A stretch of 64,000 bases of DNA, from positions 128,529 to 192,528 of the forward strand of contig CAVSWO010000002.1 of assembly GCA_963731735.1 (NCBI GenBank), in the 5' to 3' direction. The DNA is from Candidatus Kerfeldbacteria bacterium (GTDB lineage: Bacteria > Patescibacteriota > Patescibacteriia > SBBC01 > CAIJZX01). Both the position numbers and the translations under genes were made by a program. This document shows positions 30,339-31,805 of the stretch, in pieces. Under the pieces are notes generated by a model, which saw nothing but the letters and a program-made list of their open reading frames with translations, did not search any database and was not told the origin of the DNA. Position 1 is the first letter of the stretch; every line of letters begins with the position of its first letter.

Positions 30339-31805
30339 TTAGTACGATTGAGCAAATACCGCTTTACGACTCGCTGGTCGACCGGTTTTAATACACACAC
30401 CCGGTTGTATTTTTTCATCAAGTCGGATGCAGCGAATAGTTGCGTTTGTTTCTTTTTTAATTTGTGCTTCTACATCACCGTCTTCAGCCCAATAGGCTTC
30501 GACAAATTTCCCATCGGCAATAGCCGCAGTAAATTCATTCCAAGAGGTAGCTTGTATTGTCCGTTCTTGAAGACGCGCTAAAGCCCGTTGATACATCTCT
30601 GTTTTCTTAATGATGAAACCAATAACTTACCTATTTCTGCGGGTAGATCCTGAAAATTAACTTTGCGTTTATCACCCGTATCTCGTCGTACCACAACCGC
30701 CTCGTGTGACTCTATATTCTTTCCACCAAGTTCAATCCGTACGGAAATACCTTGCTTTTCCCAGGCAAAAACTTTTCTCCAGGACGCATATCCCTCTCGT
30801 CGACATGAATTCGTATTGATTCAGCGCTCAACGCGCTTTTCAGCTTCGCAGCTGCTTCAGACGTTGAGGCCTGATCAGCTGCCGTCGAAAAGATGGTGGT
30901 AATAACTACTTGGGTAGGTGCAATTCTCGGCGGTAAAACTAATCCCCTATCGTCGCAACGTGAACCATGATCAGCCCACCGATCGTTCGAGTGCTCAAAC
31001 CCCAGCTCGTTTGCCAACCAAATTGGAGCGTATTTTCTCGATCAAGATATTGTATTTTAAACGCTTTGGCAAAATTCTGTCCCAAGTTATGCGAAGTAGA
31101 AAATTGTAACGCTTTGCCATCTTGCATCATGGCTTCAACTGAATATGTTCGTAGTGCCCCAGCAAATTTTTCTGCTTCTGATTTGACTCCGGTAATGACC
31201 GGAATGGCTAGTTCGTTCTCGGCAATATCTCGGTAGATTTCTAGCATCATTCGAGCACGCTCATCAGCCTCAGCCTCAGTTTCATGAACTGTGTGCCCCT
31301 CTTGCCAAAGAAACTCCGTGGTGCGCAAAAAAAGTCGAGTACGCAATTCCCAACGCACAACATTTGCCCACTGGTTGATGAGCAGTGGCAAATCGCGGTA
31401 AGAATGAATCCATGTACTGAATGTTTCGTACATGATCGTTTCGGACGTCGGCCGCACCACTAGGGGCTCTTCGAGTTCTTTCCGACCAGCATGAGTAACA
31501 ACCGCAACTTCTGGAGCAAAGCCTTCAACGTGCTCAGCTTCTCGTTTTAAGAAGCGCTCAGGAATAAACAGTGGGAAATACGCGTTACGTACACCAGTCG
31601 CTTTGAAGCGATCGTCTAATAATCGTTGGATACCTTCCCAAATCGCATAGCCGTTGGGTTTGATAACCATACATCCTTTGACCGGGCTATGCTCGGCCAA
31701 ATCAGCCGCCTCGATGACATCAAGATACCATTGAGCGTAATCTTCTGCTCGGGTAGTAATTTTCTTTTTCTGAGCCCCTTTTACCTGAACATCATTATTC
31801 TTCAT
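30339..31805 (-). pseudogene. proS: Prolyl-tRNA synthetase (archaeal/eukaryotic-type class II ProRS) split into three ORFs
   Basis: 30939..31805 is the catalytic core ([32 protein letters not shown]..., motifs 2 and 3); 30712..31017 is the anticodon-binding domain; 30339..30596 is the C-terminal ProRS-C domain. Three frames. Confidence 0.6.

Follow-up and report, generated by a model that had tools for sequence, protein, structure and literature searches.

Frame breaks in the proS gene of a Candidatus Kerfeldbacteria contig very probably reflect a local defect of the consensus sequence

In the record analysed here, the gene for a family-I prolyl-tRNA synthetase (proS; ProRS, the enzyme) is interrupted by three frame breaks. 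Comparison with two other assemblies of the locus makes it very probable that these breaks are a local assembly or consensus defect of the record, extending over about 29.0-40.5 kb of the window (the whole 64-kb stretch of DNA that was analysed), and that the proS gene of the organism itself is intact and ordinary. The organism would carry one such gene, encoding a class IIa ProRS of 486 aa, and the consensus of the record would be locally poor, with small multi-base patches of substitutions and indels and with one block of 1.6 kb; three of the patches, which lie inside proS, would shift the reading frame by +2, -1 and +5 nt, respectively. Biologically, the locus would then be that of an ordinary native ProRS. 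The case is of importance for quality control: an essential gene appears as three or four fragments in the record, and pseudogene counts, completeness scores or an inferred loss of tRNA charging in a small-genome bacterium would be misled by it.

The proS gene in the record and in two other assemblies

The window belongs to a contig of 822,872 bp from a Patescibacterium, and two assemblies served as comparators. L083 is a Logan contig from run ERR11594398 and an extension of the contig L002, which was found by the exact look-up of the neighbouring DAO-family protein; it was aligned to window positions 25886-43670 (17.8 kb shared). L001 (ENA ERZ25039549, contig_108178, 20.8 kb) is colinear with window positions 23398-41469 and was found by a protein search with the conceptually repaired ProRS, which returned P0055 (337 aa, 96% identical to the query). 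A look-up of a permease protein for further comparator contigs yielded the same Logan contig only, two scans of JGI metagenomes (with a pattern across break 1 that allowed both versions, and with an invariant 35-mer) gave no matches, and a full-text literature search for ERR11594398 and ERZ25039549 found no mention of either.

As had been stated in the initial annotation, an archaeal-type (family-I) proS is interrupted in the record. The family is of the Thermus/archaeal/eukaryote-like type. Pieces that match TIGR00408 lie at 30339-31805, and the split is specific to the record and not due to chance. The gene is made up as follows:

30339..31805, minus strand: gene for the family-I prolyl-tRNA synthetase (proS), with three frame breaks; corresponds to one 486-aa ORF in L083
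30960..31805, minus strand: piece 1, class II catalytic core (PF00587) preceded by the N-terminal region; the ORF has its stop at 30939
30955..30959, minus strand: break 1, CAC-AGT-GAC (His-Ser-Asp) in L083 and L001, CAC-GTTGC-GAC in the window; +2 nt
30773..30954, minus strand: piece 2, anticodon-binding domain (first half; PF03129; TIGR00408 positions 269-340), in a second frame
30766..30772, minus strand: break 2, six consecutive T in L083 and L001, five T in the window at 30772; -1 nt, with a neighbouring A-to-G change
30619..30765, minus strand: piece 3, anticodon-binding domain (second half), in the remaining frame, with the window-only replacements P354S, P361G, D363N and Q367H
30605..30618, minus strand: break 3, TGACCATTC in L083 and L001, TTTCATCATTAAGA in the window; +5 nt and six substitutions
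30339..30604, minus strand: piece 4, ProRS-C_1 domain (PF09180, 7.3e-20) with the end ...FAQSY, in the frame of piece 1; 100% identical to L083

The gene had been described as three ORFs in three frames. Three ORFs are indeed present: one of 288 aa (30939-31805) that covers TIGR00408 positions 2-270 with 395.5 bits and contains the class II core (PF00587), one of 101 aa (30712-31017) that covers TIGR00408 positions 269-340 and positions 1-56 of the 94 of the HGTP_anticodon profile, and one of 85 aa (30339-30596) with the ProRS-C_1 domain, at TIGR00408 positions 388-475. Taken singly, all of them stay below the TIGR00408 cut-off of 437 (395.5, 53.9 and 44.6 bits). However, the gene consists of four pieces rather than three, and the first and the last of them share a frame. 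Three-frame translation revealed the additional piece, which is located between the last two ORFs and has the sequence AWEKQGISVRIELGGKNIES...AEIGKLL in the remaining frame at about 30619-30771; it is open up to a stop at 30578 and has a GTG at 30694 as its sole start codon. In order, the frames of the four pieces (start coordinate mod 3) are 2, 0, 1 and 2; the ORFs of the catalytic core and of ProRS-C are in a common frame (2 mod 3 for 31805 as well as for 30596), the ORF of the anticodon-binding domain (31017) is 0 mod 3. The indels add up to +6 nt (1467 nt in the window as compared to 1461 nt in L083), and piece 4 is therefore back in the frame of piece 1. Such a restoration of the frame is expected by accident in about one case in three and thus carries little weight either way. 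As for the two junctions that had been proposed, those at about 30600-30710 and 30940-31020 cover breaks 3 and 1, respectively, but break 2 at 30772 had been missed.

In L083, the DAO gene is followed by proS with its 486 codons and then by the gene for an SBP_bac_5 protein of 538 aa, and the latter two ORFs are uninterrupted. On TIGR00408 (cut-off 437), the encoded ProRS reaches 585.5 bits and covers profile positions 2-475 of 475; by this equivalog, the L083 version is a full-length family-I proline--tRNA ligase. The class II core, the HGTP anticodon-binding domain and the ProRS-C_1 domain (PF00587, PF03129 and PF09180) are colinear both in the pieces of the window and in the gene of L083. 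L001 is exactly identical to L083 at all three break sites and encodes the C-terminal part of ProRS (337 aa) in frame. Moreover, it agrees with L083 at all differing proS positions except for the patch at 31478-31484, where L001 has errors of its own.

Between the window and L083, proS differs at 27 columns (19 substitutions and 8 indel columns), and the other approximately 1,400 nt are identical. All differences fall into five patches (31478-31484, 30948-30959, 30766-30772, 30704-30745 and 30605-30618): piece 1 is affected at 31478 and 31484 only (G108R and K110E), and an extra substitution in the window at 30948 is located near break 1. The window-only substitutions in proS are distributed over the three codon positions as 8:3:7. 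Several of them replace residues that are conserved among 100 homologues, i. e. G108 (100 of 100), P354 (100 of 100), D363 (100 of 100) and P361 (97 of 100), and L083 retains the consensus residue at each of these four sites.

A three-way alignment over 7.5 kb revealed 418 differences that are found only in the window and 345 only in L001, as compared to 8 that are unique to L083, and for this reason L083 is taken as the best estimate of the true sequence. L001 itself is very noisy, with 93.8% identity to the window and 314 gap openings over 18 kb, and many of the genes called in it are fragments, such as the DAO gene with 243 aa instead of 511. Its deviations are likewise patchy and multi-base, and they break genes which both the window and L083 have intact (again, DAO is an example). 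The error positions of L001 differ from those of the window, barring one small overlap near 31478-31500. It is conceivable that the window represents a strain distinct from L083 and L001.

A noisy stretch of about 11.5 kb

The differences are not restricted to proS. The following features and counts of differing columns refer to the comparison of the window with L083:

29033..40464, no strand: noisy stretch of about 11.5 kb that holds nearly all window-only differences
34469..36045, no strand: densest noise block, with 307 substitutions, 92 inserted and 4 deleted bases relative to 1489 nt of L083
28685..30283, minus strand: OppA-like SBP_bac_5 gene that adjoins proS; four pieces in the window, one 538-aa ORF in L083
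25886-29032: 1 differing column (at 27500)
29033-31484: 50 differing columns
31485-34468: 0 differing columns
34469-36045: 403 differing columns
36046-37744: 0 differing columns
37745-40464: 12 differing columns
40465-43670: 0 differing columns

Over the 17.8 kb, this amounts to 466 differing columns, and the flanks of the noisy stretch contain one difference in 3.1 kb on the left and none in 3.2 kb on the right. The block at 34469-36045 differs from L083 by about 27% (differing columns per L083 base), and its G+C content is 51.2% in the window as compared to 49.5% in L083. The block wrecks an AstE/AspA-like gene, an HTH gene (Trp-repressor-like) and the beginning of a gene encoding a 222-aa protein, and long ORFs are absent from window positions 34469-35533. 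By codon position, the window-only substitutions are distributed as 51:50:55 in the AstE-like gene and as 19:16:26 in the HTH gene; this even spread, to which the counts in proS also conform, leaves no trace of selection. In the same block, the variation between L001 and L083 is within the background noise of L001.

Seven genes that are intact in L083 are disrupted in the window, i. e. the genes for the ThiF protein (at its C-terminus), the GAF-histidine kinase, the 222-aa protein, the HTH protein, the AstE/AspA-like protein, ProRS and the SBP protein. Interleaved with them are seven genes whose products are 100% identical to those of L083: the 507-aa gene, RR1, the Polbeta-like gene, the racemase gene, DAO and the two permease genes. 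The SBP_bac_5 gene is cut by window-only indels at 29033, 29115, 29662 and 29920, and both permease genes downstream of it are 100% identical. Similarly, indels at 39228, 38935 and 38777 divide the gene for the GAF-histidine kinase (38229-40224) into four pieces. Thus, among the three options that had been offered for the split gene, that of assembly errors agrees with the data: two other assemblies are in frame at all three breaks, and six neighbouring genes are broken as well.

Most of the sporadic indels of the window are outside long homopolymers, so that they do not carry the classic signature of homopolymer errors. Errors that fragment genes are a described problem of long-read assemblies (PMC12007338). 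Such errors likewise cause frameshifts and premature stops, and the resulting apparent pseudogenes are gone in more accurate sequence. Unlike the errors described there, those of the window affect no more than about 11.5 kb of a contig that is accurate elsewhere, and they consist of multi-base patches and not mainly of homopolymer indels. A consensus of low quality, the presumed cause, could result from thin long-read coverage, from a bridging read of poor quality or from incomplete polishing; the difference of about 27% in the dense block exceeds the error of a typical polished long-read consensus. Errors due to sequence context or base modification, as they are common to long-read assemblies, were considered and rejected as the sole cause, since the errors of L001 and of the window are at largely different places and context alone does not explain this pattern.

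One product of the noise deserves mention on its own. The 787-aa ORF at 39196-41559 is a spurious fusion of residues 1-369 of the ThiF protein, a read-through segment and the first 334 residues of the GAF-histidine kinase. The read-through is made up of out-of-frame and intergenic sequence and follows a 1-nt deletion at 40453. As P0123, this ThiF-histidine kinase fusion is present in public collections (NCBI, ENA).

Alternative explanations for the interrupted gene

The lesions at 29.0-40.5 kb might be real, with proS inactivated in a strain that survives by means of another proS elsewhere in the genome. The record does contain frame breaks and replacements of invariant residues, the G+C content of the region is 43-46% as compared to about 52% in the rest of the window, and the region is located between the tRNA genes at 23164-23253 and 44349-44552, so that it could be accessory. 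Even so, we regard a real inactivation as unlikely. A block of 2,984 nt that adjoins the last difference in proS on its upstream side contains no difference at all, and the same is true for two further blocks of 1.7 and 3.2 kb. At the rate observed in proS (27 in 1467), about 55 changes would be expected in these 2,984 nt, and about 14 even if no more than a quarter of the sites were neutral. Since the unchanged sequence includes intergenic and synonymous sites, clock-like decay since the divergence of the window and L083 is excluded. Moreover, broken genes alternate with 100% identical ones, and a block with about 27% difference (indels included) is found beside difference-free flanks, a pattern that no gradual process yields. 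The disruptions of a pseudogene would be expected to recur in independent sequences and to accumulate in step with neutral sites; here, L083 and L001, which are presumably from the same organism, are in frame and have identical flanks, and the 27 columns in proS stand against none in the adjoining 2,984 nt. The related idea that this proS is a decaying extra copy acquired by horizontal gene transfer had also been put forward, and it is at odds with the relationships of the encoded proteins: the best relatives of both ProRS and ClpC are from Patescibacteria (77% and 76% identity, respectively), so that proS appears to be native, and the flanks are free of divergence. Small genomes of the Patescibacteria type normally hold a single copy of each synthetase, and within the 64-kb window no second proS was found. 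Real lesions could also have resulted from a very recent local burst of mutations over about 11.5 kb that inactivated the sole ProRS of one strain and six neighbouring genes. This strikes us as extremely unlikely, and it would require either a novel process of hypermutation that acts locally or Pro-tRNA obtained from a host or partner. Targeted natural mutagenesis, by an adenine-specific retroelement or by a deaminase, was rejected, as all twelve types of substitution occur together with many insertions and as L001 and L083 vary in the dense block no more than the noise of L001 accounts for.

Two further explanations concern the way in which the record or the gene is read. If the assembler or polisher had mixed in reads of a related organism, the consensus would be a mosaic, i. 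e. a chimera that matches neither genome. Contigs from metagenomes can collapse related strains, the noise is limited to one stretch and varies in density, and the dense block is slightly richer in G+C than the corresponding part of L083. However, a real orthologue would differ mostly at third codon positions whereas the differences observed here are uniform, and the ratio of 92 insertions to 4 deletions in the dense block fits better to error than to divergence. A mosaic is therefore judged to be very unlikely; it is an artefact too, and the verdict on proS is the same. A divergent functional allele acquired by recombination was discarded in view of the even distribution of the substitutions across codon positions and the lack of long ORFs at 34469-35533. 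Alternatively, proS might be expressed in spite of its breaks, by programmed ribosomal frameshifting, by slippage during transcription or as separate chains that assemble non-covalently; such a split enzyme had been among the options of the initial annotation. Slippage is conceivable at break 2, which is located in a T run (GAAAAGTTTTTG), and the last piece is back in the first frame. Yet breaks 1 and 3 are complex changes of +2 and +5 nt without a slippery motif, break 2 cuts through the middle of the anticodon-binding domain (HGTP_anticodon), piece 3 has no start codon before 30694, the three domains form one protein in 120 of 120 homologues among the matches listed, and the locus is in frame in two other assemblies. 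For a programmed frameshift or a split gene, a slippery motif at each shift and an interruption conserved in relatives would be expected, and neither is seen at this locus. Expression across the breaks is thus hardly credible.

Family, relatives and surroundings of proS

If the breaks are indeed a defect of the consensus, the intact ProRS of 486 aa would presumably charge tRNA-Pro with proline, as is established for the family. The L083 protein has no large insertion (editing) domain of the bacterial-type ProRS, and it reaches about 100-110 bits on TIGR00409 and NF006625 as compared to cut-offs of 306.7 and 558, respectively. Residues 11-486 align to residues 2-477 of the ProRS from Thermus thermophilus (PDB 1H4Q/1HC7) with E = 1.6e-162, and the two proteins have in common the three domains, their order and the C-terminal tyrosine: the window and L083 end with ...FAQSY, aligned to ...FAKAY of 1H4Q. 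The motifs HCGDKAC and FCVRCG of the Thermus enzyme read YWAEDGDVE and VCIKTG here, with one of the four aligned cysteine positions kept. According to the structure paper on the Thermus enzyme, those four cysteines reportedly bind zinc. This four-cysteine site, which is a trait of the Thermus enzyme and not of the whole family, is absent from the ProRS-C_1 domain at 30339-30604. The colinear order of catalytic core, anticodon-binding domain and ProRS-C that had been claimed is correct, but the label of a zinc domain is doubtful with one cysteine of four retained.

The best match to the ProRS is the Patescibacteria protein P0001 ('MAG: Patescibacteria group bacterium'), with 77% identity over 98% of the query, and the other closest ProRS proteins from Patescibacteria are 62-68% identical. 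When the intact ProRS was searched against a set with one genome for each species, the best match was 67%, in a MAG of the Minisyncoccia. On L084, from the genome with the closest ProRS, the identity is 79.5% by tblastn, and this Patescibacteria protein has the same length (486 aa) and the same domains. The neighbourhood is different: on L084, proS is near genes for ribosomal proteins, synteny with the window is limited to proS, and the histidine kinase and response regulator encoded nearby are 29-35% identical to those of the window. The ClpC-like protein of the window has its best named matches in the Candidatus Kerfeldbacteria/Patescibacteria group (76%). ClpC and ProRS thus point to the same phylum at the same distance, which argues for a native proS, and from these protein comparisons the gene looks native rather than horizontally acquired. 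An accessory-region origin of its surroundings is still conceivable, and nothing points to a second copy.

With respect to these surroundings, there are two blocks of lower G+C content at about 25000-32000 and 37000-44000 (43-47% as compared to about 52%), and between them is an insert of higher G+C content with the DAO, racemase, AstE-like, HTH and 222-aa genes. The stretch as a whole is located between tRNA-Ser(TGA) at 23164-23253 and tRNA-Ser(GCT)/tRNA-Arg at 44349-44552, and no integrase was found among the scanned ORFs. The intact tRNA-Ser(TGA) gene is flanked by partial copies of itself, one of the 3' end (22 nt, 23059-23080) and one of the 5' end (18-20 nt, at about 23362-23382). These copies may be what is left of an integration site or of a tandem tRNA that has decayed, or they may be further assembly noise.

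Upstream of proS, a promoter-like sequence, TTGTAA-16-TATAAT (31812..31839, minus strand), matches the consensus at 10 of 12 positions and ends 6 nt before the ATG; it is a consensus match only, and the count of such sites in the region is no higher than in shuffled sequences. No Shine-Dalgarno sequence is visible before proS. Together, the promoter-like site at this distance and the missing Shine-Dalgarno sequence would suggest a leaderless or nearly leaderless proS mRNA.

Many proteins encoded in the window are without a Pfam match, and for the large ones of 1412, 927, 552 and 521 aa none was found. Finally, the segments at 46653-55135 and 781-2535 encode a 1006-aa protein with Big_7, T4SS_pilin and beta-helix domains, a TraG/VirB4-like ATPase of 648 aa and an ATPase of the PilB type (type IV pilus).
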